Source: a bacterium (GTDB lineage Bacteria > Hydrothermota > UBA3073 > JACQXS01). From it: a stretch of 64,000 nt of DNA. The DNA lies in the NCBI GenBank assembly GCA_030605695.1, contig JAUWHX010000093.1, positions 6,681 through 70,680 of the forward strand. Reading direction: 5' to 3'. Shown one piece after another: positions 1 to 51,075 of this stretch. Both the position numbers and the translations under genes were made by a program. Position 1 is the first letter of the stretch. Each line of letters opens with the position of its first letter. The notes below the pieces were generated by a model. It was not told the origin of the DNA and made no database searches. It was given only the letters and a program-made list of their open reading frames with translations.

Positions 1-888
1 GTGATGCTTGTAAGTTTCGGGAAATGTTATGGCAAATCTGTATTATGGCCTATCTCTGGATGGCAATCTGACCCAAGGCGTGTTAGTAGGTATAGTTCAC
101 TGGTATCTCTTTTAGAGTCTAATGGTTATACTCTTGATACTACATATGCTATAAATTCCAAGAATCTATTAAATTACGATGTGATAGTTATTTGTTTGTG
201 GTCAGTGAGTGCCCTTACATCTGAGGAAGTAGATTCTCTTGAGAGTTATCAACAGAGTAAGGATGGTTGTGTTTTATTGACCGCGGATTACAATTTCTGT
301 GCTAACGACTGGAAAAAACCAGAAAATATGGATTTTATGCTCAATGTATTTAATTGCGTCTCCCAAAAGGGAGGGATAATTATAATGAGTGACTATCAAT
401 CTTATGCTCCTATACGTCCTGTTACTCAGAGATTTTATATGGATGTAGGGCTTTCTACCATTTCTCCTTCTGATTTATGGTTTGATAGTTTAGATTATTC
501 TTATTGCTTCTTTACCGGTATTGATTCATTATATTTCAGGCAAGCAGGTGAACTATCAGCTACATCACCTGCTAAGGTAATAGGTTGGGCTCCTGATGGT
601 AAACCTACATTAGCTTGTTTTAATTGCGACCATTGTACCGGTGTGAATGAAAAGACTAATTCCACACAAAAGTTGTTAAGAGCTATTCCTAATCCATTTT
701 ATCATTCTGTTAAGATTGAAGGAACTTCGGGTAATATTAGAGTATATGATTTATCTGGCAAACTGGCTACGGAAGCAAATAGTGTATGGAATGGCAAAGA
801 TTTAAATAGCAATGAAGTTTCACCTGGAGTTTATTTCCTGAAAGCTAAAAATTGCAGGGCATTAAAAGTCATAAAATTAGGTAATTAG
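1..888 (+). CDS. Secreted protein with T9SS C-terminal sorting domain, 5' partial at the window edge
   Basis: The ORF runs from the window start. Its C-terminus (IPNPFYHSVKIEG...RVYDLSGKL...WNGKDLNSNEVSPGVYFLKAKN...KVIKLGN) matches the Por/T9SS C-terminal domain consensus. Confidence 0.6.
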   Translation: MMLVSFGKCYGKSVLWPISGWQSDPRRVSRYSSLVSLLESNGYTLDTTYAINSKNLLNYDVIVICLWSVSALTSEEVDSLESYQQSKDGCVLLTADYNFCANDWKKPENMDFMLNVFNCVSQKGGIIIMSDYQSYAPIRPVTQRFYMDVGLSTISPSDLWFDSLDYSYCFFTGIDSLYFRQAGELSATSPAKVIGWAPDGKPTLACFNCDHCTGVNEKTNSTQKLLRAIPNPFYHSVKIEGTSGNIRVYDLSGKLATEANSVWNGKDLNSNEVSPGVYFLKAKNCRALKVIKLGN

Positions 889-960
889 AGAATCGCAGAG
901 GATAAATCTGTGCCGGTGCAATATTAGATTCATTCCTGAAGAGATAACCTCTTTTGATAT

Positions 961-1228
961 AATCCAAAAATTACTCCAGGTGATTTAACTATTCACTCAA
1001 ATGACCTCGATGAACCGACAGTGATAGTGCAGGTCTCTGGTGAAGGGACAATGCTTCGGGTGGAAGGTGATAAAGACAATTGTGGATGGAGCACAGAAAC
1101 CTGGATTTTACAATATTAAATGGGATGCAAAAGATAATTCCGGGAAAAAAGTCTCACCGGGAGTGTACTTTTACGAGCTTGATGCTGGAGATTTCAAAAG
1201 TACAAAGAAACTCATTCTTTTGCAAACG
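961..1228 (+). pseudogene. Degenerate remnant of a T9SS cargo gene 3' end
   Basis: Two different frames encode ...EPTVIVQVSGEG... and the second half of a T9SS C-terminal domain (NIKWDAKDNSGKKVSPGVYFYELDAGDFKSTKKLILLQ). Stops interrupt both frames and no intact first half is present. Confidence 0.35.
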
Positions 1229-1386
1229 AAACATCGTAGAGGGCTACTGCTTTCAGAGAGTCTCTCGCTCGCCCCGCATCTTGCTGGGAAACTTATTCTG
1301 GGTGATTCAGCCGCGAAATAATTTATGGGCATCCCGATTCATCGAGATGCCCATAAACGCAGAGATAATAATCTCTTATCCGAAGA

Positions 1387-2023: not shown

Positions 2024-4045
2024 TTATTTTAAAAGCAGGAACTTTTTAGTGAGTAAAAGTTCATCTTCTGCCTTTCCAAAGGATTTTGCGAACAGTCTGC
2101 AAAAATATACTCCATCAGAAAAGTTCTTCGTATTCCATATAATCTCGTATTCCCCAACTTTTTTGATTCCTTTATCCAGTGTAGCTACTTCTTGCCCACA
2201 AATGTTATATATAGACAGTTCAACCTTTGCCGATTGTGGAATTGTGTAGTGAATATCAATTACTGAACGAGATAAACTTGGATGAATAGAAAGTGAAGAT
2301 TCCAGATATGGGACATCCTCATTCACTCCCGGCTTGTATGTCAAATAAACTGTATTATCAAATGAAAGACTGTCATTTTCACCAAAGACAGAAGAAAAAT
2401 AATATAGCCGAATTATATAAGTTCCAACATCCAAACCATAGGTTATAAACTTACAGAGTTCCCCATCATCTACGAGTGTTGGAATCCTATCTGTCAATGG
2501 AAAAAACTGTGTGGTATCTTCCACAGGAGCATATTCTATTCTATATCCTTCAAATTCAAAAGGCGAGTCAGGAGTTCTAACAATTGTCGCACTTCCCCAA
2601 ATAGAAAGAGTATCATCAATATATGCAGGAGACGGAGGATATAAACCTGTTACCATTACTGCGGCTGAATCATAAACCAAAATAGGATTGGCGAGGATGG
2701 TATTATATATCACTGATAGTGCTCTATCTCGTGCTATTAAATGTCCGAAAATGAAGTTAGTTAAAAGAAGTATCGATACAGAATGTCCCTCCATAAGTGC
2801 ATCAGTATAAAGAGAAGTGAAGAATGTGATTAAGAAAGATGAGCCTGTTGCTCCAATATGCCCACCAAAACCATCACAGGTGGTTTGCATAAGTGTAGTC
2901 TTGTTAGAATCAGCTGAGAGACACTCCCCAAAAATTGAACTCTTAAGAGTAAGGTTAGTTTCTCCATAAAAATACAAATTCCAAGCACGGATAGATGTAT
3001 TTACGAGTCGCAAGTTTCTTCCTGTAAATGGTGCTATCCAATCATCATAGTGAGAATCATCTACAAGTCCCGATATAGTGTCGGGAATAACAGTTCCCAA
3101 GCTGTCATATCTTGCTACTTCAAAGATATTGCCTGCACTTTGCAAATCAGCATCATATATAGTTATATCGGTACTATCCATTGCCATCGTTGCAAGTATA
3201 AGTCCATAAAGGGAATCTACTTTGATTGAATAGTTGATTCCTGTGCAGGTACTGTCAGGATAGGTAAATCGCTCAACCCATTCGTCCATACTTGGAGAGC
3301 CGTGTAGTTCGCCTGATGACCCTCTTGGGAAACCAAGCCAGATGAGTACAGTATCGGAGTGTGCAATATTGAGTTGTGCTGAATCACTCAGTATAACAAA
3401 CTCGCCTGCTTTATCAGAATGGCGAATATCAATTGAGCTGTTATTACCCAACATAACGAAAGTAACAAAAGCACCATCCATATCCACGCTATCCATCATA
3501 AAAGAACTACTGCCTATAACACCAGCGGAAGTCGGAAAATTAGCAGAATTAAAAGTAGAATTGGTTATCTCCATTGCGGCAGAATCCCAAAGCATAAATC
3601 CAAATTGATAGATGAAATCTTGCAGTATAATAAAATCAGTGTTCTCCACAGATACAAACGAATTATGATATGCGTATATATTACCTTTTAAGAAGAAAGA
3701 GCAATTCCGAATAATAAGCTGTGCATCATTTATTAAGACGATATTATCACAAATAGTAGTATCGTGTTCAATTATCACAGTTGAATCAATAACTATATCA
3801 TCTTTTGTAGATTTCAGTGTAGGGGCGGTTCGCGAACCGCCCCTATAAATAAACCCTATCTGCTCAATGATATTTGAAAGCTCATATGTAGGCATTCTAT
3901 CTGGTGAAAGCTTTTTCTCTGTTTTCGGTGGCTTTAGTCCGTAGGTACGTGGAATAAATCGGTTTATTTCTTGGCGAAGCAAATCCATCTGTCCTGCATT
4001 AGCAATCAACGGCAATAAAATTAAAAGTAACATTATTTTTTTCAT
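2024..4045 (-). CDS. T9SS cargo protein, parallel beta-helix-like, with intact C-terminal sorting domain
   Basis: Signal peptide, repetitive N/S/I-rich beta-helix-like segments, and a C-terminal ...VELSIYNICGQEVATL...GVYFCRLFAKSFGK...KKFLLLK sorting domain. An AGGTAAG-type RBS lies upstream. Confidence 0.65.
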   Translation of the reverse strand: MKKIMLLLILLPLIANAGQMDLLRQEINRFIPRTYGLKPPKTEKKLSPDRMPTYELSNIIEQIGFIYRGGSRTAPTLKSTKDDIVIDSTVIIEHDTTICDNIVLINDAQLIIRNCSFFLKGNIYAYHNSFVSVENTDFIILQDFIYQFGFMLWDSAAMEITNSTFNSANFPTSAGVIGSSSFMMDSVDMDGAFVTFVMLGNNSSIDIRHSDKAGEFVILSDSAQLNIAHSDTVLIWLGFPRGSSGELHGSPSMDEWVERFTYPDSTCTGINYSIKVDSLYGLILATMAMDSTDITIYDADLQSAGNIFEVARYDSLGTVIPDTISGLVDDSHYDDWIAPFTGRNLRLVNTSIRAWNLYFYGETNLTLKSSIFGECLSADSNKTTLMQTTCDGFGGHIGATGSSFLITFFTSLYTDALMEGHSVSILLLTNFIFGHLIARDRALSVIYNTILANPILVYDSAAVMVTGLYPPSPAYIDDTLSIWGSATIVRTPDSPFEFEGYRIEYAPVEDTTQFFPLTDRIPTLVDDGELCKFITYGLDVGTYIIRLYYFSSVFGENDSLSFDNTVYLTYKPGVNEDVPYLESSLSIHPSLSRSVIDIHYTIPQSAKVELSIYNICGQEVATLDKGIKKVGEYEIIWNTKNFSDGVYFCRLFAKSFGKAEDELLLTKKFLLLK

Positions 4046-4180
4046 CTTACCTCCCTTATTACTTCAAAAGTAGCAATTTCTTAGTTTGTGAAAATTTATC
4101 ACCCACTTTTAATTTCACAAAATACATTCCTGACCCTACATTTTCACCCAAATTATTCTTCCCATCCCAAGTAATACAGT

Positions 4181-4211
4181 TAATTAGTTGATTAGTTAAT
4201 TGGTTAATTGG
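4181..4211. repeat. Heptamer-unit tandem tract (TAATTAG/TAATTGG variants)
   Basis: Direct reading gives ttaattagttgattagttaattggttaattgg. On the minus strand this encodes INQLTNQLIN inside the out-of-frame C-terminal-domain continuation of the upstream gene. Confidence 0.7.
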
Positions 4212-4239
4212 AAAAGATTTGACCAATCGACCTCCTAAA

Positions 4240-5772
4240 TCATAAATCTGGAGTTGTAAGTCTTTTAACTCTGAACTCTGAACTCTTAATTTTAAACTCT
4301 ATTACTGTCTTATGGGTGAAAGGATTAGGATAGACAACTAATTTGATTCTCTCAGATAGGTTCTTGGTTTCATTAATTGCCTGTTTCTCATATTCATATA
4401 TTAAAATGGGGTCCCACCCAAGAGTTATAGAGAACCCAATTCCTCCAGATAAAGTATCAGCCCATAAAATATTACTGTAACGGTCTGTAATCATATTTTC
4501 TGCACAAATAGAATCAAAGGAAATATCAAAAGAAAGCAAGATAAAATCTGTTTCAGCCCAAGCAATGTAAAAGGTATCGCCTTCAATATCTTGATATGCA
4601 AAACAAAATCGCATATTATCTCCTCGAGTCTCTGTAATTTCCCCTAAATGCACGGATGGAGAATCTATAAGTGTGGCAAGATTTTTATAAACCCAGTAAG
4701 CAACTCTCGGTTTATTTAATTCAGAGTCCGGTTCAGAGCAACATGCACCATCTCCGATAAGTCCACAACAATTGAAAAAAGAAGTGGAGTCATCACTGAA
4801 GTTTCGCCACTCCACCAAATTATTCCAAAAAAGTTTATCCAATCCATTAGCGAGATTCCAACAATATCTACGCACAAGAGAACTCGCTTGTTCTTCTTGA
4901 GTTTGATATGGACAATCAGCAGGTTGATAACAGTAAGTTGCATGTTCACAAGACCATATCTGAGTATTTACATAATCTAAGTCATCTAAATGCTCACGAT
5001 ACATAGGAATAGCATCCATATGCCAATTAAAAGCTTTACCCCAGTGGTGAACATCAATAGCACCAATAGGAACACCCATAACAGATAGTGTATCTAATGC
5101 ATCCATAATAAATGAGTCAGGGGAGAAGCCTCGAGTGGGAGCGATAAGTACGATTTTAGCTTCTGGGTCGGCAGACCTGGCTGCTGAATCCACAGTTGCT
5201 ACCAATAGGCAATATTCAGAAACAGTCCGTCCACTCTCATTCCAGAGAAAAACTTCATTGCCACATTGCCACCATTTCACATTAACAAAGGTATCAGCGT
5301 CAAGATACCCATCACCATCGTACCGTTCAACTGATGCAGAGACAAATTCTGCATATTCAGGCAAATAATCTACCGGATTTCGTGCACTATCTCCACCCTC
5401 GTGGAAAACCCCTAACCAATTTACAGGTTCCATACATCCAAATGGAGCAGAAATCACAGAATCTCCACCTTGGGAAGCAGACCAATCGTATCCACCACCG
5501 ATTACCGGTTCAATTAAATCCCAGATAAGTTGTGTATTGGACCGCGTCCAGTGAGCACCTAAATAAGTATAATGAGTATCTGCCCACTGAGTGTATTCAT
5601 AATAATTATTAAAGCCCATAACATCACAGAATCCCCCTTTTGGTACGAAGCCAGCGAAAATCCCAAAACGGCTTCCCTCATTGGGCAAGTGAGCAGCGGT
5701 TAATCCTTTACTAATTACCGTTATCAATACAATGATAAACGCTAATGACCCAAATATATGTTTTTTAAACAT
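4240..5772 (-). CDS. Glycoside hydrolase-like T9SS cargo (TIM-barrel type; GNE motif), currently ending before its C-terminal sorting domain
   Basis: Start moved to the Met preceded by a GAAGGGA RBS (MFKKHIFGSLAFIIVL signal peptide). The body has a WWQCGNEVF.. glycosidase-like motif. The ORF stops right after PNPFTHKTVIEFKIKSSEF, which is the first strand of a T9SS C-terminal domain. Confidence 0.55.
   Translation of the reverse strand: MFKKHIFGSLAFIIVLITVISKGLTAAHLPNEGSRFGIFAGFVPKGGFCDVMGFNNYYEYTQWADTHYTYLGAHWTRSNTQLIWDLIEPVIGGGYDWSASQGGDSVISAPFGCMEPVNWLGVFHEGGDSARNPVDYLPEYAEFVSASVERYDGDGYLDADTFVNVKWWQCGNEVFLWNESGRTVSEYCLLVATVDSAARSADPEAKIVLIAPTRGFSPDSFIMDALDTLSVMGVPIGAIDVHHWGKAFNWHMDAIPMYREHLDDLDYVNTQIWSCEHATYCYQPADCPYQTQEEQASSLVRRYCWNLANGLDKLFWNNLVEWRNFSDDSTSFFNCCGLIGDGACCSEPDSELNKPRVAYWVYKNLATLIDSPSVHLGEITETRGDNMRFCFAYQDIEGDTFYIAWAETDFILLSFDISFDSICAENMITDRYSNILWADTLSGGIGFSITLGWDPILIYEYEKQAINETKNLSERIKLVVYPNPFTHKTVIEFKIKSSEFRVKRLTTPDL
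4266..4300. repeat. (AACTCTG)3-like heptanucleotide tract at the frame break of the T9SS glycosidase
   Basis: The tract aactctg aactctg aactctt aatttta aactcta is seen directly. Both reading frames of the minus strand pass through it; see the findings. Confidence 0.8.
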
Positions 5773-5813
5773 CTTTCTTCCCTTCACTACATTAGAGGTG
5801 ATAGTTTGAAGCA

Positions 5814-6371
5814 CTACCAGGTTTGTAACTTTTTTTCTAAATTCTTAATCTTTTCTCTGAGTTCACCTATTCCATTTTCCAGATTAAGAAAAACTTTATC
5901 CGCACCTCCCAAAATTCCTGCCTCTTTATGCAAATTGTAAATGTCATCTTCAATAACTTCTATCTTGCTCTCCATTCCATTATCCCATTCTAAATATGGC
6001 TTAGGCCTTTGAGAGAAGAAATACCCTGCTATTACAAGAATTATCACTACTCCCACACCAACAAATGTTGGAGCGAAGCGGAAACCCCTGCCATAGCGGG
6101 GCAGGACGAAACTTTTGAAAATCTCAACAGATAAAGCTTTCAGTTGGAATTTCTTTCTCTTTGCTCTTTCTAATACTTCCTTTAAAATAGCAGGAGACGG
6201 TTCTTCTTCCGGTAGTTCCTTGTATAAATTCACAGTATCTTCTAATTCTTTAAATTTATGACGACAGACCTCACATCCCTTCAGATGTTTCTCAAACTCC
6301 TGAGTTTCTTGAGTCCCAAGTTCCTTATAAAAATATAACAACCCAAATTTTTCAAACTTATTACAACTCAC
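5814..6371 (-). CDS. Anti-sigma factor, zinc-finger (ZAS-like), single transmembrane helix
   Basis: HLKGCEVC(RH) motif near the N-terminus and a central hydrophobic helix. The gene overlaps the stop of the upstream ECF sigma gene (ATGA-type coupling). Confidence 0.7.
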   Translation of the reverse strand: MSCNKFEKFGLLYFYKELGTQETQEFEKHLKGCEVCRHKFKELEDTVNLYKELPEEEPSPAILKEVLERAKRKKFQLKALSVEIFKSFVLPRYGRGFRFAPTFVGVGVVIILVIAGYFFSQRPKPYLEWDNGMESKIEVIEDDIYNLHKEAGILGGADKVFLNLENGIGELREKIKNLEKKLQTW

Positions 6372-6898
6372 TTTCCCTCCTTTAAAACCCTGCGTAAACT
6401 AATAATAGCATTACGCATTCTCGCAAGCACTGTATTAAGCGGACAGTCAAGCATCTTGGAAATCTCCCTGAAATTAAGTCCTGTATGTTCTCTTAGTAGG
6501 AATATCTCTTTCTGTTTGGCAGGTAACTCCATCACTGCACTATTCAACAAAGAAAGAAGCTCTCTTTTCTCAATATCTTTTTCAACATTTCTGTAGGAAC
6601 GAGATTCAAGCGTGCCCTTAACCTGTAAATTCCGTTTATTTCTTCTCAAATAATCAATGCTTTTAGAATTAGCCAATTTGAATAATAAGCCCGAGAATTT
6701 ATTTTGCTCCTTATACTTTGGCAACAACTTGATAACTCGTATCCACACATCCTGAAAAATATCTTCAGCAACATCTTTACTCCTGACCATTCTTAAAATA
6801 TAATTAAAAAGAGGTAGTTTATATCGGGATAGAAGAACCTCAAATGCCCCCTCATTACCAGCTTTATAATTCTTGATAAGTTCTGCATCGCTCAACAT
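6368..6898 (-). CDS. ECF-family RNA polymerase sigma factor
   Basis: Sigma-70 region 2 (FEVLLSRYKLPLFNYILRMV..DVAEDIFQDVWIRV) and region 4 (LPAKQKEIFLLREHTGLNFREISKML) motifs. Paired with the downstream anti-sigma gene. Confidence 0.85.
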   Translation of the reverse strand: MLSDAELIKNYKAGNEGAFEVLLSRYKLPLFNYILRMVRSKDVAEDIFQDVWIRVIKLLPKYKEQNKFSGLLFKLANSKSIDYLRRNKRNLQVKGTLESRSYRNVEKDIEKRELLSLLNSAVMELPAKQKEIFLLREHTGLNFREISKMLDCPLNTVLARMRNAIISLRRVLKEGK

Positions 6899-6985: not shown

Positions 6986-8173
6986 TTGCTTATATTTTAT
7001 AATGTGATAGATAGAATTCAAATAGAACGAGAGGCAAGAGCTTATGTGGCTCGAGGAGAATGGGAAAAAGCAATCTCTCTTTATCGTGAACTCCTTGATA
7101 CAAAAGGTAAAGACCCAAATATCTACAATCTTATTGGAGATGTCTATGCAAGAATGGACGATTTAGCTGATGCTCTGCCCGAATATCTCACTGCAATTGA
7201 CCTTTATGAAAAAGAGGGACTATTTGAAAACGGAATAGCAGTTTGCAAAAAAGTAATAAGACTTAACCCTGAAACTGGAGAAGTTTACTTCAACTTAGCA
7301 CTCTTTTATGCTGAGATTGGCTTATTAAATGAGGCAAAAGATTCTTTAATGACATATCTCCGACTTTCTCCCGGCAAACGCAGGATAGAAAAGGACCCTC
7401 AAAGATACAAAAAACTAATGATGTTATTGGCATCCGATGAACGACTAAAACCAATTATTAAAGAGCTTTATACTAAAATAGGCAAAAAAGAAAATGAATT
7501 AGATGGAATATTTGGATTCCTGCCGCCAGAACCTGAAGAAAAACCTCCTGAAGCTGAAATTTCCCATCCAGAAATTAAACTTCAACCTACTGAAAAACCT
7601 TCCATCGAAAAACAAAAGTTACACGAAGAACCAAAATCTTTTACTGAATCACAAAAGCCAATTCCTAAATTAGAACCTGTAGTAGCAGAGACTAAACCTA
7701 CATCTCAATCTAAACCTGAACCATTTCCTCAACCTGTAGCGGTAGATGAAAAAGAAATGGAGATACTTCTACATGCAATAGATGAAATTAGTGCCCATAA
7801 TAGTTCAGAAGTCAAAAAAGAACATTATGAGCTTGGTATTAAATATAAAAATCTTGGATTTTATGATGCGGCTATCAGGGAATTTCAGCTATCTACAACT
7901 TCTAATTCACACAGGCTAAAAGCTCTCAAAGAACTTGGCTATTGTTTTTTAGAGAAAGCTGAACCAAAACTTGCTGCAAACGCTTTTGGAAGAGCAGTTG
8001 AAGAAGGAGGCAAAACATCGGAAGATTATATAGCACTTAAATATGGAACTGGAAAAGCCTATGAATTGATGAGAGACAAAGAAAATGCAATTATCTCATT
8101 TGAAGAAGTCTGCCTTCAAGATATTAACTATCAAGACGCCAAAAAACGCTTAAATCAATTGAAGAAAGAATAA
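6986..8173 (+). CDS. TPR-repeat protein with Pro/Glu/Lys-rich linker
   Basis: N-terminal and C-terminal TPR-like helices (YNLIGDVYARMDDLADALPEYLTAIDLYEK...; HYELGIKYKNLGFYDAAIREFQ) are separated by a PE/PK-rich low-complexity segment. The annotated start is TTG and an in-frame GTG at 7004 is possible. The stop directly abuts the next gene. Confidence 0.6.
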   Translation: MLIFYNVIDRIQIEREARAYVARGEWEKAISLYRELLDTKGKDPNIYNLIGDVYARMDDLADALPEYLTAIDLYEKEGLFENGIAVCKKVIRLNPETGEVYFNLALFYAEIGLLNEAKDSLMTYLRLSPGKRRIEKDPQRYKKLMMLLASDERLKPIIKELYTKIGKKENELDGIFGFLPPEPEEKPPEAEISHPEIKLQPTEKPSIEKQKLHEEPKSFTESQKPIPKLEPVVAETKPTSQSKPEPFPQPVAVDEKEMEILLHAIDEISAHNSSEVKKEHYELGIKYKNLGFYDAAIREFQLSTTSNSHRLKALKELGYCFLEKAEPKLAANAFGRAVEEGGKTSEDYIALKYGTGKAYELMRDKENAIISFEEVCLQDINYQDAKKRLNQLKKE

Positions 8174-9385: not shown

Positions 9386-11021
9386 GTCAAAATTAATTGA
9401 GTATTTTAGAAAAATGAATAAGTCAAAGTTAATTGAGTATTTGAAAAAGCCTTTAACTGGTGAACAGAAAGCATTAGGATTAGATATAGGAACTCGTCAT
9501 ATAAAGCTTGCCCAGATAAAGAAAATCCCAGGAGGTTATTTGCTTGAAAAATATGGAATAATAGAATTACCCCCAGAAGCAATCGTTGACAGAGAAATCA
9601 TGGACAGAGAAGTTCTCATTGAAAGTCTGAGAAAAATAATAGAAGATAACGGAGTTGAGGAAAAAAAGGTATCTACTGTTATATCTGGGAAAAATGTTAT
9701 TATTAAAAAACTTCTTGCTAAATCCCCCAAAAAACGAGAAGAGAAAAAAGTGTTTGAATCTCTTGCAAAAGAAAATATCCCATTTGACCTTAAAGAAGTT
9801 GTAATAGACTTCAAAAAGTTAAGAGAAAAAGACGAGGACATCGAGCTTGTTCTTGTTGGAGCAAAAAATGAAGTCCTTTATCCTTTAATAGATGTTTTGA
9901 AAGAAGCATCTCTTTTGCCTTGTAATATTGACATACCACCTTTTATTCTTAAATCCGCTTACCAAAAATATATACCTGAGGAAGGCACTTGCCTTTTAGT
10001 AAACATTGGGTTTGAACATGTATTAATAATGGCTGTCCGAGATGGAAATTATCTATTTGATGACGAAATTCCTATGGGAGTCCGCACTTTTATTGAAGAA
10101 ATTCAAAGAATATGCGGAATCGGAGCTAAGGAAGCAACCGCAGTGCTTCAGGGAGAAGAAGTTCAGGATGTAAAAGAAAAAGATATTGAGCGAGCAAAAA
10201 ACACTACAATTAAAAGGTTGTTATCCAGAATAGAGAGATTGTTACCAGAAATCTCCGAATGGAAACTTATCATTTTAGGTGGTGGTGGAGCAGGTATTCC
10301 AGGAATTCAAGAAACTTTCGCAGAAAAATTTAATACAAGTTGCGAAATCGGAAACCCTTTAAAAGAAATAGAATGTGGAGAAACTCCCCCAGATTACCCA
10401 CATCAACTTGATATTGCAATCGGATTAGCCATATCAAAACTTGAGAATACAGGAGTCAATCTCTTGCCACTTGAAGAGAGAGTAGAAGAAAAAAACAAAA
10501 TTCTCCAGGCACTTGACCAAGGGCTCCCTTTTTATAGTTTTATTGGAAGTGTTTTTATCCTCTCACTTATAGTATTTGGGATAACGAAAAAACAGCATAG
10601 AATTGAGAAAGAAATTGAGGATATGAAAACTCAACAAGAAGCACTTATACCTAAAGTAAATGAAGCTCGTGAACTAATGGGAAAAGAAAAGGAAGTAAGA
10701 ACCAAAGTGAAAGTTATACAAGATTTATCTATGCATAAGTATACGAGGGTTAAATTATTGGATGAAATAAATCACCTACTTCCTGAATATACCTGGCTTG
10801 TAACTTTAAATGAGGAGTTAGCAGATTCAATTGGAGGTATTGGTATCTTACTTCGTGGAATTACAACTTCAAACTTTGCAGTATCTGAGTTCATGCGTCG
10901 CCTTGAAGATTCAAACTATTTTACTGAGGTTGAACTAAGCTATACAAAAAGAGGCGAGATTTCTGAAACTGAAACAACAGAATTTGAAATAAAATCAAGA
11001 TTCGAAGAATTCAAAAAGTAA
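9378..11021 (+). CDS. pilMN: PilM-PilN fusion (type IV pilus assembly inner-membrane platform)
   Basis: N-terminal actin-like PilM motifs (LGLDIGTRHIKLAQI...; ...ILGGGGAGIPGIQE). After residue about 375 there is one transmembrane helix followed by a PilN-like periplasmic region. The start overlaps the upstream stop by 8 nt. The 5' end carries a 33-bp tandem duplication (MDKSKLIEYFRK / MNKSKLIEYLKK). Confidence 0.75.
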   Translation: MDKSKLIEYFRKMNKSKLIEYLKKPLTGEQKALGLDIGTRHIKLAQIKKIPGGYLLEKYGIIELPPEAIVDREIMDREVLIESLRKIIEDNGVEEKKVSTVISGKNVIIKKLLAKSPKKREEKKVFESLAKENIPFDLKEVVIDFKKLREKDEDIELVLVGAKNEVLYPLIDVLKEASLLPCNIDIPPFILKSAYQKYIPEEGTCLLVNIGFEHVLIMAVRDGNYLFDDEIPMGVRTFIEEIQRICGIGAKEATAVLQGEEVQDVKEKDIERAKNTTIKRLLSRIERLLPEISEWKLIILGGGGAGIPGIQETFAEKFNTSCEIGNPLKEIECGETPPDYPHQLDIAIGLAISKLENTGVNLLPLEERVEEKNKILQALDQGLPFYSFIGSVFILSLIVFGITKKQHRIEKEIEDMKTQQEALIPKVNEARELMGKEKEVRTKVKVIQDLSMHKYTRVKLLDEINHLLPEYTWLVTLNEELADSIGGIGILLRGITTSNFAVSEFMRRLEDSNYFTEVELSYTKRGEISETETTEFEIKSRFEEFKK

Positions 11022-12141: not shown

Positions 12142-12160
12142 ATACAGCAAAACTTAATTT

Positions 12161-12195
12161 CTCTTGTCTCTTGTCTCTTGTCTCTTGTCTCCTGT
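12161..12195. repeat. (CTCTTGT)4 + CTCCTGT heptanucleotide tract in the leader of the PilP-like gene
   Basis: Direct reading gives ctcttgt ctcttgt ctcttgt ctcttgt ctcctgt. It lies between the ATGA-coupled ATG at 12138 and the body of the downstream ORF. Confidence 0.85.
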
Positions 12196-12952
12196 CTATG
12201 GAGCAGAAGTAACCAGAATAAAGATTAAAAAAGTAGGTGAGTGTGTAAAAGTAATTGTATCTACTGACGCATCGCAATATAAAGATACAGTGCTTCACAA
12301 TCCTCAGAGAATAGTAATAGACTTTAAAAAATCATTTTCTCGTTTGCCAAAAGAGATAACTTCTTCATACCTTCCACTCTTAAAAATCAGAACCTCTCAA
12401 TATACAATAAATCCACCTACCACAAGAGTAGTGCTTGACCTTAAGAACAAAATCACTCATTCAATCTCTCTAATTAAAGGAGGATTAGAAATTAATCTTG
12501 GCAAAAAGATTCAGCCATCCCAAAAAGAATTGCCCATAAAACCCAAAGTAGAATCAAAAAAGGAACCAAAAGTAAAACCAACCAAAAAACCAAAAGTCAA
12601 ATTAACAGAGGAAATCAAAAAAACATCTGAACTACCTTCAGGACCAGAAGCTTTCTTCTATAATCCAAGAGGAAAGCGTGACCCATTTAGACCCTATCTG
12701 GGTGCCGATGTAAAGGATACTCTCCTTGATATAGGAACTGCAGCAATTGTTGGAATAATGTGGAGCCCCAAGGAAAAATATGCATTGGCACAGGACTCTC
12801 GAAATAGAGCATATATACTTCAGGAAGGAGACCATGTAAGCGGTGGAAAGGTCCTTCATATAAAAAAGAAAGAAGTGATTTTTCTTATGCGTGTTTTTGG
12901 AGGAAGAAAAAAAGTGATTTTGAAAGTAACACCAAAAAAGGAGGAAAAGTGA
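12164..12952 (+). CDS. AMIN-domain + PilP-like protein (secretin-associated); annotated from a TTG start
   Basis: AMIN-like segment (VTRIKIKKVGECVKVIVSTDAS...PQRIVIDFKKSF..), a Lys/Pro-rich linker, and a C-terminal PilP-like beta domain (..YALAQDSRNRAYILQEGDHVSGGKVLHIKKKEVIFL..). The upstream ATG at 12138 is out of frame by the heptamer tract. Confidence 0.55.
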   Translation: MSLVSCLLSPVYGAEVTRIKIKKVGECVKVIVSTDASQYKDTVLHNPQRIVIDFKKSFSRLPKEITSSYLPLLKIRTSQYTINPPTTRVVLDLKNKITHSISLIKGGLEINLGKKIQPSQKELPIKPKVESKKEPKVKPTKKPKVKLTEEIKKTSELPSGPEAFFYNPRGKRDPFRPYLGADVKDTLLDIGTAAIVGIMWSPKEKYALAQDSRNRAYILQEGDHVSGGKVLHIKKKEVIFLMRVFGGRKKVILKVTPKKEEK

Positions 12953-14151: not shown

Positions 14152-14268
14152 TTGGGGACCCAAATAAGAAACCACAAGATTTTATCTCTCTTGACAAAAC
14201 TAATTTAATCGTATATATTATTTGAACCTATGAACCTTTAAACTTTTAAACCCTTGAACCTTAAATCT

Positions 14269-18497: not shown

Positions 18498-20876
18498 ATG
18501 ATGTATGGGTCTGATTGGCTAATTGCCGGATATTCTATAAGAAAATGGATAGGAGATTGCATCAGACAATATGGTAGCGGTCCTATGTGGGACCCATCTG
18601 CATTTGGAGGAATACCATTTGGCAATCCTTATACATTTTACTTTTTGTCTTTTCTGATTTTGCCTGTTCATGTGATTTGGACCTATATGTTTGTATTCGC
18701 TACATTTTTTGCCGGCCTGGGAATATACTTATATTTGAAAGAACTAAATATCTCTTTGTATTCTTCGTTTCTTGGAGCAATTGTTTATATGGGATGCGGT
18801 TCTGTTCTCTCAATGACTTACCCGGGGCACGATGGAAAAACATTAGCAACTGCCTTCTTTCCGTTTATTCTTCTCTTCTTACATAAGGCACTTACAAAAC
18901 ACAAACTTATTTACTTCTTATTTGCCGGAGCTGTAGGAGGACTTGCCGCTGTTAATGCTCATTTCCAACTTATTTACTACGCCGGTGTAATGTGCGTGTT
19001 TTATTTGCTCTATCACCTTATATGGCAACGTAAAGAGAATGGAATAAGAAAAACCATCATACTTATAGGATATTCACTTTGTGCCCTGATCCTTGCCGGT
19101 GGTTTGCTATCAATACACTACTTCCCTATATTCGGAACTATGGGATGGGGAGCAAGAGGTGCAGGTAGGGGATATGAGTTCGCCACCTCCTGGTCCTTGC
19201 CACCCAATGAGCTTTTGGATTTACTAACACCTTACTTCTCGGGATTACAAAATAACTATTGGGGAGAAAACTATTTTAAACTTGATACTCAATACTTAGG
19301 AATATTACCTTTGTTACTTGCTTTGCTTGCAATTGCTTTCAAGAGAAGAGAAAAATATGTCCGATTCTTTATAGGACTTTGTGTAGTTACTGTGATATTT
19401 GCGATTGGTGGACATACTCCACTTTATCGTATTCCATATTGGGTACTTCCAGGCTTAAAAAAACTCAGATGTCCTACAATGATTTTTTATCTCACAAGCT
19501 TTGGCATCGCAGTTCTTTCGGCATTTGGAGTCCAAACACTGACAAACAGAAGCCAGAAGCCAGAAGCCAGAAGCCAGAATATAAGAAATATTAGTATCTT
19601 ATTGGGAATAATATTTGGTATAGTTGTAATATTTGCTGTTATTTGTTCGGTTGGGAAGGAATCTATACTCTCCTCGTTGAAAACACGCTGGAGCCCAATT
19701 TTACTTGGTAAGTACGGTCCTCAACTCACTCAACAAAAATTACAGAACCTTTCTGAAAATTATCCTAATTTTCTTGGCGGATTGGGCAAAGCTATACTTT
19801 TAATAGCCATAAATTCTTTCTTGATTTTACTTTTAGCTATGAAACGACTAAAATTGAGAGTTTGGATTTTAATAGCTATACCAATACTTATATTTGACCA
19901 GTGGAGTATTGAGAAGAAATTTCTAAAAACCGTCTCACATCCCAAGCAATATTATGCTCCTGATGAAATCGTAAGTTTTTTGGGAAACCCGTCCCGAACC
20001 GTGACGGGTCGGGATGACCGAGAACTCTACCGCGTATTCCCACTTAATTATGAGCATTCTCAGGATGGATACCTTTCACTTTATAATATTCAAAGTTTAG
20101 GTGGATATGTTTCAAATCCTGGTGATAGATACCAGAAACTTATTGGCGCCGGTGAAAGTGTTATGTTCACTCCTTTAAATTTAATACGGTATAGGAATAT
20201 GCTTAACATCTTGAATGCCAAATATGTCATCTCTATGTGGGTTCCGGATGACCTATCAAAATATCCACCTAATACTCAACAGGTAATAAAAAGTTTCAAA
20301 GATGGTTTTTTAAGAAAATGGGGAACAAGCTGGGAAGAAGCACATAAAGGCTTTAAACTTGTTTATAGAAGCAATCGTGGGTATGGAATATATGAAAATG
20401 AAACTACTTTACCAAGAGTATGGTTGGTCCATAACTTCAAAGTCTTGTCTCGTGAGGAAGTTCTTGAGGAATTAAAAAACCCTACTTTTCACCCTGATAC
20501 TATAGTGCTTCTTGAGGAAGACCCCGAATTCCAAACCCCGAACCCTGAACCCCGAACCCCGAACCCCGAGAAAGTTGTAATCAATGAGTATTCGCCCAAC
20601 AAAATAATATGCACTGCCACTCTTGAATCGCCAGGTTTTCTAATATTCTCAGATAACTGGCATCCAGATTGGAAAGTTTGGGTTGACAAGAAAAAAGAAA
20701 AAGTTTACATTGCTGATTACACTTTGAGAGCAGTTCAGTTGGATAAAGGAGAGCACAGCGTGGAATTTAAGTATGATTCCTTGCATTTTAAGTTAGGAGC
20801 AATCGTGTTTTTCCTTTCATTCTTATTCTTTCTCGGTACAATTGGGTTCTGGTTTAAATTTTATAGAAGAAGATGA
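18498..20876 (+). CDS. yfhO: YfhO-family polytopic membrane glycosyltransferase; the true 5' end is probably at 18335, see findings
   Basis: Many transmembrane helices and a large C-terminal extracytoplasmic domain, as in YfhO-type glycopolymer glycosyltransferases. The frame is open back to the upstream stop and encodes a further TM helix (KIFIAILFILPVIYFASLL) with no ATG/GTG/TTG in that stretch. Confidence 0.65.
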   Translation: MMYGSDWLIAGYSIRKWIGDCIRQYGSGPMWDPSAFGGIPFGNPYTFYFLSFLILPVHVIWTYMFVFATFFAGLGIYLYLKELNISLYSSFLGAIVYMGCGSVLSMTYPGHDGKTLATAFFPFILLFLHKALTKHKLIYFLFAGAVGGLAAVNAHFQLIYYAGVMCVFYLLYHLIWQRKENGIRKTIILIGYSLCALILAGGLLSIHYFPIFGTMGWGARGAGRGYEFATSWSLPPNELLDLLTPYFSGLQNNYWGENYFKLDTQYLGILPLLLALLAIAFKRREKYVRFFIGLCVVTVIFAIGGHTPLYRIPYWVLPGLKKLRCPTMIFYLTSFGIAVLSAFGVQTLTNRSQKPEARSQNIRNISILLGIIFGIVVIFAVICSVGKESILSSLKTRWSPILLGKYGPQLTQQKLQNLSENYPNFLGGLGKAILLIAINSFLILLLAMKRLKLRVWILIAIPILIFDQWSIEKKFLKTVSHPKQYYAPDEIVSFLGNPSRTVTGRDDRELYRVFPLNYEHSQDGYLSLYNIQSLGGYVSNPGDRYQKLIGAGESVMFTPLNLIRYRNMLNILNAKYVISMWVPDDLSKYPPNTQQVIKSFKDGFLRKWGTSWEEAHKGFKLVYRSNRGYGIYENETTLPRVWLVHNFKVLSREEVLEELKNPTFHPDTIVLLEEDPEFQTPNPEPRTPNPEKVVINEYSPNKIICTATLESPGFLIFSDNWHPDWKVWVDKKKEKVYIADYTLRAVQLDKGEHSVEFKYDSLHFKLGAIVFFLSFLFFLGTIGFWFKFYRRR
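19547..19579. repeat. (CAGAAGC)4 heptanucleotide tract, in-frame in yfhO
   Basis: Direct reading gives cagaagc x4 + cagaa. It encodes RSQKPEARSQKPEARSQN in a predicted loop. Confidence 0.85.
20522..20570. repeat. (CCCCGAA)-type heptanucleotide tract of 7 units, in-frame in yfhO
   Basis: Units ccccgaa ttccaaa ccccgaa ccctgaa ccccgaa ccccgaa ccccgag, encoding DPEFQTPNPEPRTPNPEK. Confidence 0.85.
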
Positions 20877-21589: not shown

Positions 21590-22265
21590 TGTAATAATAG
21601 TAGCTGCAGGTGAAGGCAAGAGAATGCAAGACAAGATTCCTAAGCCATATATTAAGTTGAAAGGAAAACCAATTATAGCTCTGACTTTAAAAGTATTTAG
21701 TGAAATTCAAGAGATAGAAAATATAATAATTGTTACTCTTCCCGATTGGATTAAATATTGTGAGTCCGAAGTTATAGAGAAATTTGGATTTAAAAAGGTT
21801 AAGGCAATTATAAAAGGTGGTGCTAAAAGGCAAGATTCAGTGAAAATTGGACTTGAGGCTTTATCCTCTACCCTAAACCCTATACCCGATACCCTTTTAA
21901 TTCATGATGCTGTAAGGCCATTTATTACAGAAGATTTTATAACTCATTTAATCAAGATGTGTGATAAATACGGAGCTGTGGTTCCTGGCATCCCCGCAAC
22001 TGATACGATTAAAGAAATAGATAACGGTTTTGTGCATCGCACTCTCCAAAGAAATAATGTCTATGAGATTCAAACTCCTCAGGTTTTCAAGCATGAGATT
22101 ATTAAGGAAGCATATGAAAAGGCTTATTCTTGTGGTTTTTATGGCACAGACGATGCTTCACTTGTTGAAAGATTGGGAACCCAAGTAAAGGTCGTGCCGG
22201 GACTCCAAAGAAACATAAAAATTACTACCAGGGAAGACCTCTTATATGCAGAAAATTTACTTTAA
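21582..22265 (+). CDS. ispD: 2-C-methyl-D-erythritol 4-phosphate cytidylyltransferase
   Basis: MADVIIVAAGEGKRM... N-terminus and conserved IspD motifs. Start moved to the ATG at 21582, which overlaps the upstream stop. Confidence 0.8.
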   Translation: MADVIIVAAGEGKRMQDKIPKPYIKLKGKPIIALTLKVFSEIQEIENIIIVTLPDWIKYCESEVIEKFGFKKVKAIIKGGAKRQDSVKIGLEALSSTLNPIPDTLLIHDAVRPFITEDFITHLIKMCDKYGAVVPGIPATDTIKEIDNGFVHRTLQRNNVYEIQTPQVFKHEIIKEAYEKAYSCGFYGTDDASLVERLGTQVKVVPGLQRNIKITTREDLLYAENLL

Positions 22266-27135: not shown

Positions 27136-28110
27136 ATGTTTAAAGAATCCTCTGAACAAGTAAAAATACTTGGTCTCTACGATATAGACCCTGCGGAATG
27201 GAACTCTCTTCTTAATTCAAAGAATGCATTCGTCTTTAATACTCTGGAATGGACTAATGTCTGGAACCTGTCATACGAAGATGCTCATCCACTTTTCCTT
27301 GTGACAAAAATTAATGGATTCCAATCTGCAATCCCATTTATAGAAATCAAAAAATTTGGATTTAAAAGCTATTACTCTATGCCTTACAGCGATTACGGTG
27401 CAATATTATTAAACTCTCAGCTCTCCTCATCCTGCAATCTGCAATCTGCATTTGCCAAACTCGCACACGGAAATTGGGGTATGCTCTCATTCTCTGATTT
27501 CCACGAGGAAGCTAAAGGGTTAGAATCACTTGGGTTCAAAAAACTTGATTCTGTAACCCATATATTGTCCCTTGCAAAAGATTCTCAAGCTCTATGGAAC
27601 CAATCTATAAGTTCAACAAGAAGGCAGTTTGTCCGTCAGTCGCAACAAAAAGATGTAAAAATCTCCCTTGTTGAAAGTGAATCCCAGGTCCGAGAATGCT
27701 ATAAAATGCTTGAGGACACTGCCAAAAGACATAATAAAAAAGCTTCGAGATTCCCACTAAAGTTCTATCTCAATATCTTCAACATAATGGGAAAATTCCT
27801 AAGATGGACTATTGCAATCCAAGATAACCAGCCCATTGCTAATATAATAAATTTTATATACAAAGATACTATCACTTATTGGGACGGTGGCTCTTATACC
27901 CACGCATTACAATACCGCCCAAACGATGCACTTATATGGGACGCAATAAAATGGGGTTGCAATAATAACTATAAATATTATGACCTTCGTGGCTCCCCTA
28001 CTCCAGGGCTTGCTAAATTTAAACAAGAATGGGGTGCCAAAGAAAAACATTATCCGTTCTATTACAAAAAGTCCCCATTATTTAAAACCCTTAAAACACT
28101 TACCCGATGA
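27136..28110 (+). CDS. FemAB-like / GNAT-fold acyl (aminoacyl)-transferase
   Basis: C-terminal region ...YWDGGSYTHALQYRPNDALIWDAIKWGCNNNYKYYDLRGSP...AKFKQEWGAKE... resembles the FemAB/BioF2-like family. Confidence 0.45.
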   Translation: MFKESSEQVKILGLYDIDPAEWNSLLNSKNAFVFNTLEWTNVWNLSYEDAHPLFLVTKINGFQSAIPFIEIKKFGFKSYYSMPYSDYGAILLNSQLSSSCNLQSAFAKLAHGNWGMLSFSDFHEEAKGLESLGFKKLDSVTHILSLAKDSQALWNQSISSTRRQFVRQSQQKDVKISLVESESQVRECYKMLEDTAKRHNKKASRFPLKFYLNIFNIMGKFLRWTIAIQDNQPIANIINFIYKDTITYWDGGSYTHALQYRPNDALIWDAIKWGCNNNYKYYDLRGSPTPGLAKFKQEWGAKEKHYPFYYKKSPLFKTLKTLTR

Positions 28111-29325: not shown

Positions 29326-29430
29326 CTCGTGAAATACCTGTTTGTTCCCGACAAATACTTATTTACTCCCGATGAATACTTATTCATTCCCGACAAATAC
29401 CTCTCCGTTCCCGACAGAGAACTCTCTGAT
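29326..29430. repeat. Five phased 21-bp direct repeats (core CCCGACAAATAC) in a convergent intergenic region
   Basis: Units start at 29326, 29347, 29368, 29389 and 29410, exactly 21 bp apart: ctcgtgaaatac.., cccgacaaatac.., cccgatgaatac.., cccgacaaatac.., cccgacagagaac... Confidence 0.85.
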
Positions 29431-29446
29431 TCGTTCATAGAACTTC

Positions 29447-30463
29447 CTATCTCATTAAAATTATTTTCTTTGTTGCCTTGAAATTACTTGCTTCCACTCT
29501 CACAAAGTAGATACCTTTACTAAGCTTCTCAAGATTTATCTCAACATCCTGCTTCGTTGTTAAAACATGCTTTACTAACTTGCCTGATAGGTCATAAATC
29601 TTGATACTTGCTCCCTTGCTCGCTTGTTGAGGCAAAGCCGAAATCCCGATTTGTCGGGGATAGCTCGATAGCTTGATAACTGCCTTCCCAAACGATGGGT
29701 TCGGATATATCTCTAAACTAATGCCTATTGCCTTATGCCTATTGCCTGTCTCTTCCTCTACTCCTGTCTCAGAAACCCTTATAAGATAGACATCTTTCTT
29801 GCCAGCACCAAAAGAATATGTCCCTCCTGCAATTATAAAGCCACCACTTGCATACTCCTGAACAGAATAGCCACAATCCCAGGCAGTTCCTCCATAAGTT
29901 CTTGTCCACAGAGTATCACCATTTGCATTTGTCCTTATAAGATAGACATCATCAGAGCCAGCACCAAAAGACTTTGTATATCCTGCGATTATAAAGCCCC
30001 CGCCTGCACACTCCTGAACAGAAGAGCCACCATCAGAGTTAGTTCCGCCATAAGTTTTAGTCCACAGAGTATCTCCATCTGCGTTCGTTCTTATAAGATA
30101 GACATCATCAGAGCCAGCACCAAAAGACTCTGTATATCCTGCGATTATAAAACCCCTATCCGTACACTCTTGAACAGAATTGCCATCATCCCAGTAAGTT
30201 CCGCCATAAGTTTTAGTCCATAGAGTATCACCATTTGGCTCTATCCTTATAAGATAGACATCACTTCTGCTAGCACCAAAAGAAAATGTACATCCTGCAA
30301 TTATAAAGCCACTACCTGCACACTTCTGAACAGAACAGCCATGATCGTACTCGGTTCCGCCATAAGTTCTTGTCCACAGGGTATCAGGACCATCGGCAAT
30401 TGCAGGTGCGGACACAATAAATTGTGTCCCTACAAAAGCCCATACTCTCAAAAACTTACGCAT
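29447..30463 (-). CDS. T9SS cargo with about-45-aa tandem repeats ([11 protein letters not shown]...FIIAGYT.SFGAG.DDVYLIRT, x5)
   Basis: Signal peptide, five near-identical repeats, and an intact C-terminal sorting domain. Compared with its paralog at 63517, the sorting domain carries an extra YPRQIGISALPQQ encoded by the palindrome tcccgatttgtcggga (29649-29664). Confidence 0.7.
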   Translation of the reverse strand: MRKFLRVWAFVGTQFIVSAPAIADGPDTLWTRTYGGTEYDHGCSVQKCAGSGFIIAGCTFSFGASRSDVYLIRIEPNGDTLWTKTYGGTYWDDGNSVQECTDRGFIIAGYTESFGAGSDDVYLIRTNADGDTLWTKTYGGTNSDGGSSVQECAGGGFIIAGYTKSFGAGSDDVYLIRTNANGDTLWTRTYGGTAWDCGYSVQEYASGGFIIAGGTYSFGAGKKDVYLIRVSETGVEEETGNRHKAIGISLEIYPNPSFGKAVIKLSSYPRQIGISALPQQASKGASIKIYDLSGKLVKHVLTTKQDVEINLEKLSKGIYFVRVEASNFKATKKIILMR

Positions 30464-30636: not shown

Positions 30637-32112
30637 TTATCTCATTAAAACTATTTTCTTTGTCGCCTTGAAATCACCTACATCCACTCTCACAAAGTAA
30701 ATACCTTTAGTAAGTTCCTCAAGATTTATTTCAACATCGTGATTCATTGTTAAAATAGTCTTTACTAACTTGCCTGATATATCGTAAATCGTTAATCGCA
30801 AATCGTTAATCGTGTAATCGTCCCGATTTTCGTTTAACGAATAACGAATAACGATTTTTTTGCTACATGGATTCGGAAAAACTCTTAACTCTAAACTCTT
30901 AACTTTTAACTCTTCACTCTCCTCCACATTTGTATTCTCACATTTATGACGCTTGTAATATATCTCCGAGTTGCTAGCCCCATGCCGCCAATCCGTCCAA
31001 GCTATATGAACATCATAATCATAATCGCAATTCCAACATGCTACAGAAACGCGTTCAGACTTGCCGACAGAATTGGTTAACATCTCATCGGTTCCCCAAG
31101 TCTCACCATCATTGACTGACCGATTGTAATATATCTCATAGTCGCTATCCCGCTCATCTACCCAAACTACATGAACTGCTGAATCACAAACTGCTATAGA
31201 AGGATCCCCTGAGTAAGCAGAGTTAGTAGTTAATCTCCTATTATCTATCCCCCAAGTCTCTCCATTATCAACTGACCGATTGTAATATATTTCATAGTTG
31301 CTATCACGCCAATCATACCAAACTATATGGACTATTGAATCACAAACTGCTATAGAAGAACACCCTGAGTAAGCAGAGTTATCGGTTAGTCTCTTATTAT
31401 CTATCCCCCAAGTCTCTCCATTATCAACTGACCGATTGTAATATATCTCATAGTTGCCAGCACGCTCATCTATCCAAACTATATGGACTATTGAATCACA
31501 AACTGCTACCGAAGGATACCCTGCGGGAGCAGGGTCATTAGTTAGGCTCTTATCTATCCCCCAAGTTTCTCCATTATCAACTGACCGATTGTAATATATA
31601 TCAGCGTCGCCATCACGAAAATCATACCAAACTATATGAACTATTGAATCACAAACTGCTACCGAAGGACAAGATGAGTCAGCAGGGTCATCAGTTATCC
31701 TCTCATCTATCCCCCAAGTCCCACCATTATCAACTGACCGATTGTAATATATCTCCGTGTTGCCATCACGGTTATCATACCAAACTATATGAACCATCGA
31801 ATCACAAACTGCTACCGAAGGAAAATGAGAATCCCCTGTAGTTAGCCGTGTATCCGGGTCAAAGCTACTCCCAGAATTGATAGACCTTATATAATAAAGC
31901 TCGCCTGGATTATCACCCAATCTGTGCTCCCAAAAAATATGCACCATAGTATCCCGTACTGCTATTGCCCAAGCATTATTGTAGCCATCATAGTCAACAT
32001 GGCTTGGATAAACAGTTAATCTTTTATCTGGATTCTCCCACTGCCCATACAAATCCACAGGATTCTGCGAACTGCAAGCTCCCAACACCATCAAAAATCC
32101 CCATTTCTTCAT
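30637..32112 (-). CDS. BNR/Asp-box repeat T9SS cargo protein
   Basis: Repeated SVDNGETWG / SVNDGETWG Asp-box motifs (x6); C-terminal domain ..LRVFPNPCSKKIVIRYSL...[14 protein letters not shown]...GIYFVRVDVGDFKATKKIVLMR. Confidence 0.75.
   Translation of the reverse strand: MKKWGFLMVLGACSSQNPVDLYGQWENPDKRLTVYPSHVDYDGYNNAWAIAVRDTMVHIFWEHRLGDNPGELYYIRSINSGSSFDPDTRLTTGDSHFPSVAVCDSMVHIVWYDNRDGNTEIYYNRSVDNGGTWGIDERITDDPADSSCPSVAVCDSIVHIVWYDFRDGDADIYYNRSVDNGETWGIDKSLTNDPAPAGYPSVAVCDSIVHIVWIDERAGNYEIYYNRSVDNGETWGIDNKRLTDNSAYSGCSSIAVCDSIVHIVWYDWRDSNYEIYYNRSVDNGETWGIDNRRLTTNSAYSGDPSIAVCDSAVHVVWVDERDSDYEIYYNRSVNDGETWGTDEMLTNSVGKSERVSVACWNCDYDYDVHIAWTDWRHGASNSEIYYKRHKCENTNVEESEELKVKSLELRVFPNPCSKKIVIRYSLNENRDDYTINDLRLTIYDISGKLVKTILTMNHDVEINLEELTKGIYFVRVDVGDFKATKKIVLMR

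Positions 32113-48957: not shown

Positions 48958-51075
<2,118 letters not shown>

Follow-up and report, generated by a model that had tools for sequence, protein, structure and literature searches.

A frameshift at a heptanucleotide repeat splits the type IX secretion sorting domain of a PslG-like glycosidase gene in a candidate division WOR-3 bacterium

Whether a secreted enzyme whose sorting domain is broken at a run of short repeats is a phase-variable protein caught in its OFF state, or simply the product of a slipped gene, is the question raised by a locus of a candidate division WOR-3 bacterium. The locus lies in a 64,000-nucleotide stretch of contig JAUWHX010000093.1 (GenBank assembly GCA_030605695.1, positions 6,681 to 70,680 of the forward strand), which we analysed as a whole and refer to as the window. 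In this window, the gene for a secreted PslG-like glycosidase, located on the minus strand, is frameshifted inside its type IX secretion system (T9SS) sorting domain, and the frame change sits at a tract of heptanucleotide repeats at positions 4267-4286. T9SS cargo is targeted to the outer-membrane translocon by its C-terminal domain (CTD) (PMC5445135). The original prediction for this locus, made without database searches, regarded it as the classic architecture of slipped-strand phase variation, in which a change in the number of repeat units would toggle the secretion or surface attachment of the enzyme rather than its expression.

We built a hidden Markov model (HMM) from the window's own sorting domains and searched it with hmmsearch against the six-frame translation. 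Combined with the list of open reading frames (ORFs), their translations and the output of Tandem Repeats Finder (TRF), this gave the following layout:

4240..5814, minus strand: ORF of the glycosidase gene, with a probable ATG at 5772 that yields 510 amino acids (ORF list, translation)
4240..5772, minus strand: parts of the truncated product, namely a signal-peptide-like N-terminus, a PslG-like (beta/alpha)8 glycosidase plus beta-sandwich, and the first strand of the sorting domain
4276..4377, minus strand: linker and VVYPNPFTHKTVIEFKIKSSE, which form the N-terminal portion of the sorting domain and are read in the frame of the gene; HMM positions 2-36
4267-4286, minus strand: heptamer tract, AGAGTTC AGAGTTC AGAGTT on the coding strand; 20 nt, 2.86 units, 100% pure (TRF)
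4062..4298, minus strand: remainder of the sorting domain in the +1 frame, ...SSELKDLQLQIYDLGGRLVKSFPINQLTNQLINCITWDGKNNLGENVGSGMYFVKLKVGDKFSQTKKLLLLK; HMM positions 29-106, 84.6 bits; stop codon TAA at 4059-4061
4178..4211, minus strand: period-8 tract of four units (CCAATTAA-type) in the same sorting domain, where it codes for PINQLTNQLIN of the beta2-beta3 loop (TRF)
4050-4055 and 4043-4045, minus strand: GGGAGG ribosome-binding site and start codon (ATG) of the next gene, which follow immediately on the stop that ends the sorting-domain frame
2024..4045, minus strand: the next gene, for another protein with a T9SS tail (ORF list, Pfam)

The translations, the TRF result and the two HMM matches agreed with the prediction that both frames meet in the heptamer tract. 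The +1 frame also carries the rest of the domain as had been described, being open from 4298 to its TAA and ending just before the ribosome-binding site of the next gene. Some details required correction. The ORF had been said to stop directly after ...SSEF, whereas its TGA, at 4240-4242, comes only after 10 further codons (RVKRLTTPDL). The truncated product therefore has a 13-residue out-of-frame tail (F RVKRLTTPDL) as its C-terminus, and the 510-residue protein ends ...VVYPNPFTHKTVIEFKIKSSEFRVKRLTTPDL. The tract had been given as three full units from 4266 and begins at 4267, with its last unit incomplete; on the plus strand it reads AACTCTG x2.86, and with an imperfect flanking unit included it reads AAGAGTT CAGAGTT CAGAGTT on the coding strand. 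Finally, the tract had been placed at the junction of cargo and secretion signal, and the alignment puts it inside the sorting domain, in the loop that follows the first strand (beta1-beta2).

As encoded, the 510-residue ORF had no sorting-domain match in NCBIfam. In-silico removal of 7 nt gave a protein of 568 residues that continues through ...IEFKIKSSELKDLQLQIYDLGGRLVK... to KKLLLLK and a stop, and whose residues 480-564, which span the junction, matched Por_Secre_tail (PF18962) with 33.4 bits (cutoff 27). The claim that one unit fewer restores a canonical sorting domain was thereby upheld. Gain of two units also restores the frame, which neither gain of one unit nor loss of two does; the gene is in frame at two or five units and out of frame at one, three or four. 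The domain resembles T9SS type A sorting domains (TIGR04183/PF18962) in its position at the extreme C-terminus of a protein with a signal-peptide-like N-terminus, and the repaired protein and the orthologue described below both pass the family thresholds. It differs from them in being split over two frames, so that it is absent from the encoded protein, and in its host, which belongs to WOR-3 and not to Bacteroidota.

The original prediction had suggested looking for an in-frame version in related genomes, and one was found. The orthologue in assembly GCA_030628695.1 (L002), which is 95.2% identical at the nucleotide level, has exactly one 7-nt unit fewer at the tract (1.86 perfect units), is in frame there and reads ...IEFKVKSSELKDLQLQIYD.... 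The sequence that occupies the +1 frame in the window (4062..4298) is read in frame by the orthologous proteins P0121 and P0122, and P0122 matched TIGR04183 with 41.1 bits against a cutoff of 23. Because this in-frame orthologue differs by exactly one unit, the comparison shows that the frameshift arose by slippage, with slipped-strand mispairing as its cause. The period-8 tract in the same domain is identical in length in the two genomes. A contig from ENA (L003) is in the same state as L002; it is 100% identical to L002 and was not counted as independent. Further copies of the locus were not recovered: a flank-anchored scan of JGI metagenome contigs, with a variable gap for 1-, 2-, 3- and 4-unit variants, gave 0 matches, and exact-protein look-ups with the neighbouring extracytoplasmic function (ECF) sigma factor and with the 524-aa NCBI product returned a single contig of the Logan assemblies, considered below, or nothing.

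The L002 copy carries damage of its own. It is disrupted by a 1-nt deletion at L002 position ~4870 (window ~5588; ACACTC-GTGGGC), outside any repeat, and its start codon has changed from ATG to ATA (window 5771); these two changes leave the signal-peptide part to be called as an 84-aa ORF of its own. The same gene has thus been disrupted independently in the sister lineage. The ratio of nonsynonymous to synonymous substitution rates (dN/dS) between the two orthologues was 0.25, as compared to 0.20-0.25 for five neighbouring genes. Since this value corresponds to normal constraint over most of the divergence, both lesions are recent. A long-standing pseudogene was ruled out on the same ground.

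The name glycosidase, used in the original prediction, stood as far as the fold is concerned and gained no support from Pfam, NCBIfam or a phmmer search of PDB sequences, in which the catalytic part had no match. A profile of 26 homologues gave weak matches to glycoside hydrolase (GH) clan GH-A around an invariant G-N-E motif, the best being GH53 (E=1.3e-4), and N172-E173 and E276 were invariant across the 26 homologues. An AlphaFold2 (AF2) model had a predicted local distance difference test score (pLDDT) of 82.6, and its best Foldseek match in the PDB was PslG (E=9e-20, TM 0.72), followed among the top matches by GH-A glycosidases only. The glycosidase identity is supported by this predicted fold, on which it rests, and the sequence profile assigns the protein to no described GH family. 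The protein shares with PslG-like members of clan GH-A (PDB 5bx9, 4zn2) a (beta/alpha)8 barrel with a C-terminal beta-sandwich, the N-E acid/base motif and a second invariant Glu. In contrast to these likenesses, sequence identity is only 16% and PslG has no T9SS tail. Many homologues of approximately 40% identity carry a C-terminal T9SS tail. By inspection, the N-terminus consists of MFKKH, a hydrophobic stretch of ~16 residues and LTAA, and the AF2 model has a helix at residues 4-22 with low pLDDT. Among the scanned proteins of the 64-kb window, none matched the T9SS machinery families SprA/Sov, PorV, PorU or PorK-N.

We consider it likely that the split gene is a recent and essentially ordinary slippage allele, representing either a polymorphism or the start of gene loss, and no switch evolved for contingency; with three units in the tract, it would revert only at a low rate. 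Replication slippage in the window's lineage would have turned a two-unit proto-repeat, AGAGTTC AGAGTT, into AGAGTTC AGAGTTC AGAGTT, and the gained unit would have shifted the frame in the beta1-beta2 loop of a T9SS type A sorting domain. The product would keep its signal peptide and catalytic domain and would lack a foldable sorting domain. Given its signal-peptide-like N-terminus, export by the Sec pathway would still be expected; because it is the CTD that targets T9SS cargo to the translocon, the enzyme would then be retained in the periplasm or degraded, and would be neither exported nor attached to the surface. The allele would thus be one of loss of secretion, and to this extent the predicted effect on secretion rather than expression is retained, while a dedicated switch is not well supported. 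In principle, a one-unit deletion could reverse the frameshift, at the low rate expected of so short a tract. The independent lesion in the sister lineage fits with beginning gene loss, and the slippage event itself would be a by-product of a general tendency of this WOR-3 lineage to form and slip heptanucleotide repeats.

This tendency is pronounced. The window contains 17 perfect period-7 tracts of at least 2.8 units, where Markov-1 simulations gave an expectation of 0, and no other period from 4 to 12 showed a comparable excess (period 6: 1 vs 0.2; period 8: 1 vs 0). Once imperfect units were allowed, the number of heptamer tracts in the window rose to 25. Per 10 kb, the window has 2.7 tracts and a WOR-3 relative (L004) has 3.6, as compared to 0.03 in a control set of 638 kb from 43 other bacterial genomes, so that the window is ~90-fold denser than the control. 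A more distant relative (L005, Obg 59% identical) had zero heptamer tracts, which confines the property to a narrow lineage. The units are diverse, including AGAGTTN, CGTTATT, CACGAAT, CAGATGC and others, and the AGAGTTN family recurs in either orientation. Inside the sorting domains, which make up 6% of the window, lie 16 of the 25 tracts (P~5e-14). They recur at three sites, namely the linker before the PNPF motif, the first strand with its following loop, and the second loop, and heptamer tracts are borne by 7 of 12 sorting domains in the window. The tract of the glycosidase gene, at the first-loop site, is the shortest among them. Tracts that lie in frame in other kinds of gene, together with further examples of the period, are as follows:

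36178-36206 and 36662-36699: in-frame tracts in the gene for Lnt
21870-21894: in-frame tract in the gene for IspD
19547-19579 and 20531-20569: in-frame tracts in the gene for YfhO
27432-27450: in-frame tract in a FemAB/GNAT-like gene
60481-60517: in-frame tract in the part encoding the N-terminus of asparagine synthase
12158-12197, 30778-30920, 47659-47796, 50766-50960, 51993-52183, 54405-54520 and 63752-63779: example period-7 tracts

The genes for Lnt, IspD, YfhO, the FemAB-like protein and asparagine synthase, which serve housekeeping and envelope biogenesis, are no candidates for switching. Since in-frame tracts are also present in Lnt, IspD, YfhO and asparagine synthase, such tracts are a mutational property of the genome and not a feature specific to switchable genes.

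Similar repeats have been described elsewhere. As cited in PMC4679880, Mrazek et al. (2007) reported genomes in which long simple sequence repeats (LSSRs) are dominated by heptanucleotides, and polymerase slippage was proposed as the cause. The WOR-3 window is like these genomes in its lineage-specific excess of period 7 and of no other comparable period. Heptamer repeats of the sequence TAACTGA occur in Beggiatoaceae, Cyanobacteria and Bacteroidetes, mainly in intergenic regions just upstream of start codons (PMC4679880). They consist of a single heptamer, whereas the units in the window are diverse, and the WOR-3 tracts are mostly coding, in frame and concentrated in the loops of T9SS sorting domains. 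Among our controls, a groundwater Nitrospirae metagenome-assembled genome (MAG; L012) contained AAGAAGC x4.9 twice and TCTAACT x3.9 (1302-1342, 9703-9785), which shows that sporadic heptamer tracts occur in other lineages too. AGAGTTN x4 was present at >120 loci in JGI metagenome contigs (L048-L167), many of them from one termite-gut sample, Ga0099364; any sorting domain was found at 3 of these loci, and at none was the tract near a sorting domain.

We examined the stability of the tracts by comparison with L004, for which 7.7 + 3.3 + 3.4 kb could be aligned at 88-95% identity. In 8 of the 9 sorting-domain tracts shared with L004, the number of units was unchanged over a DNA divergence of 5-10%, and only point substitutions were seen. 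This is a weak bound on the slippage rate, a point to which we return below. The ninth tract, in the linker before the PNPF motif (window 47659-47699, L004 ~7595-7640), has AGGGTTY in the window and AGTCCAC in L004, with a net difference of +3 nt and the frame kept. A similar exchange separates two close paralogues, the genes at 29447 and 63517, which differ mainly in that the linker unit has been swapped and a loop has an insertion of 33 nt; the linker has GGCAATA-type units at 29718-29747 and AGAGATT at 63752-63779, again with the frame kept. No mechanism known to us would exchange one heptamer unit for an unrelated heptamer while keeping the frame. The longer tracts are impure, with 70-86% matches (TRF). 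The window has 13 sorting domains, of which 11 are intact; of the other two, that of the glycosidase is split at a tract and one is a decayed remnant. All 6 sorting domains in L002 and L004 are intact. A split at a tract was found in 1 of the 18 sorting domains examined. The decayed remnant, at window 888-1330, has a fragment ...ITPGDLTIHSNDLDEPTVIVQVSGEG in one frame and, in another (1028-1318), a sorting domain's C-terminal half (HMM 51-106) that has lost its stop; no tract is involved.

An evolved contingency switch would let the enzyme alternate, at a rate that selection would favour, between a form that is exported or attached to the surface (2 or 5 units) and one that is retained in the periplasm (3 or 4 units), perhaps as one of many such sorting-domain toggles. 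It is the strongest of the alternatives, and we regard it as unlikely. In its favour, the unit is not a multiple of three and lies inside an ORF, and the natural alleles are exactly one unit apart, one in frame and the other not. Purifying selection acts on the gene, whose downstream frame is intact, and the presence of tracts in more than half of the window's sorting domains, at recurrent loop sites and with strong enrichment, is also what such a system might look like. Phase variation by heptanucleotide repeats is established elsewhere, as in neuO of E. coli K1, whose 5'-AAGACTC-3' repeats number 3-53 units (mode 20); among complete genomes, 65.6% have the gene OFF, and in a single culture minority alleles make up 2-5% (PMC13001214). 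The present locus is like neuO in having a 7-nt unit in coding sequence, a frame set by unit number and natural alleles that differ by whole units. The neuO tract, however, is at the 5' end and switches expression, whereas the tract described here is in a C-terminal sorting domain and would switch localisation; and against the range of unit numbers and the frequency of OFF alleles in neuO stand 2 vs 3 units here and one comparable domain OFF among 18.

Other findings also argue against a switch. Contingency loci are characterized by long pure tracts, and that of the glycosidase gene has 2.86 units in the window and 1.86 in the orthologue, while the long tracts of the window are degenerate and not pure. 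They are further characterized by hypervariable unit number and many OFF alleles, and neither was seen, in a comparison that covered few genomes and in which selection may mask slippage. Comparable tracts are present in housekeeping genes, and the sister allele was inactivated by an indel that does not involve a repeat. The description of the locus as a classic phase-variable architecture is therefore not sustained: the tract is minimal, its genome is rich in such tracts, their unit numbers are nearly all conserved, splits at them are rare, and the sister lesion is of another kind.

Several observations nevertheless weigh against an ordinary slippage allele. The lack of any sign of long-term relaxed selection would also fit a reversible switch, as would the 79-codon +1 frame, which is still entirely open. 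The conservation of unit number between genomes bounds the slippage rate only weakly, because selection removes alleles with one unit more or less from the consensus sequences of functional genes. Unit numbers were taken from assembled consensus sequences, and the Logan contig that serves as a second assembly of the locus possibly derives from the same reads as the MAG. Moreover, the concentration of 16 of the 25 tracts in sorting domains is not obviously predicted by a neutral mutational account. This clustering in sorting-domain loops is a more unusual result than the split gene itself.

One extension of the switch takes in all of these sorting-domain tracts. The tracts at three fixed loop positions might form a genome-wide contingency system that acts cargo by cargo, with the glycosidase as a member caught OFF; we give this slightly less credence than a switch at the single locus. 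If it were true, subpopulations would stochastically withdraw single cargo proteins from export while keeping the gene. In a weaker version, the tracts may be hot spots of in-frame loop and linker turnover, or of sorting-domain exchange between cargo genes.

It is far less probable that the split is an artefact of sequencing or assembly, such that the true genome has two units and the tract was miscounted. The source is a MAG, and the closest relative has two units. However, Logan contig SRR14876850_33035, assembled from SRR14876850 and perhaps from the same reads, matches the window with 100% identity over 3595 nt, three units included, and gives the same 510-aa call. In addition, the 20-nt tract is shorter than usual assembly k-mers, and a clean 7-nt insertion would be atypical of short-read error. 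Programmed +1 frameshifting by the ribosome, or slippage during transcription, in the 63 nt over which the two frames overlap (~4306 to 4243) would yield a full-length protein and might seem to be favoured by an AGGAGG near the frame-0 stop. It was rejected as highly improbable: no known type of slippery site is present; the AGGAGG is downstream of the stop and not upstream as in prfB, and encodes the Gly-Gly of ...DLGGR... in the orthologue; a shift at the stop would drop the conserved LQLQIYD strand; the in-frame orthologue shows that the ancestral state needed no recoding; and none is needed by the other 17 sorting domains.

A frameshift by slippage at a simple repeat is a known kind of event, and what is new is its instance in a T9SS sorting domain; our literature search found no report of repeat-mediated switching of such a domain. 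Taken alone, an ordinary slippage allele is one more simple-repeat slip that inactivates part of a gene, and its value is mainly one of annotation: the locus should be described as a frameshifted T9SS cargo gene and not as an enzyme without a CTD plus an orphan ORF. The context is of greater interest, namely a heptamer-rich WOR-3 lineage whose tracts are kept in frame within coding sequence and, in two thirds of cases, fall in sorting-domain loops. If the tracts proved to be heterogeneous in length, they would represent a new route to secretome diversification, with localisation switched gene by gene. If they proved to be stable, they would be a natural example of a lineage-specific mutational bias filtered by protein structure, with tracts persisting only where insertions are tolerated, for example in loops of a domain lost by cleavage after export. 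The concentration of in-frame tracts in sorting-domain loops, including the in-frame replacement of units, is worth following for either reason.

Genes for an ECF sigma factor and for a putative anti-sigma protein (window 5814-6898) lie immediately upstream of the glycosidase gene and on its strand, with overlapping stop and start codons. Because of this shared strand and the overlapping codons, the arrangement suggests that the sigma factor, the anti-sigma protein, the glycosidase and the next T9SS cargo gene (2024..4045) form a co-regulated unit. A scan for promoters and terminators around the locus gave results at chance level.

Other repeats and genes of the window were recorded along the way. 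Further period-8 tracts are present at 14221, 40849, 42240 and 63670-63714. An LVIVD-repeat protein with a T9SS tail, encoded at 48958-51075, contains four heptamer tracts and is absent from the otherwise syntenic L004, which accounts for a 2.1-kb difference. Tandem repeats of 156 nt (52 aa), which are probably repeated structural modules, occur with 72-86% identity in three T9SS cargo genes (29777-30386, 31094-31822 and 57334-57861). Two adjacent genes at 54648-56613, between T9SS cargo genes, encode proteins of 353 and 304 aa without a match in Pfam or NCBIfam, and from their sequences these look like outer-membrane beta-barrel proteins. Finally, a 21-nt tandem repeat of four units (AAATACCTATTCATTCCCGAC) lies at 29332-29426, just 3' of the stop codon of the cargo gene 29447..30463.

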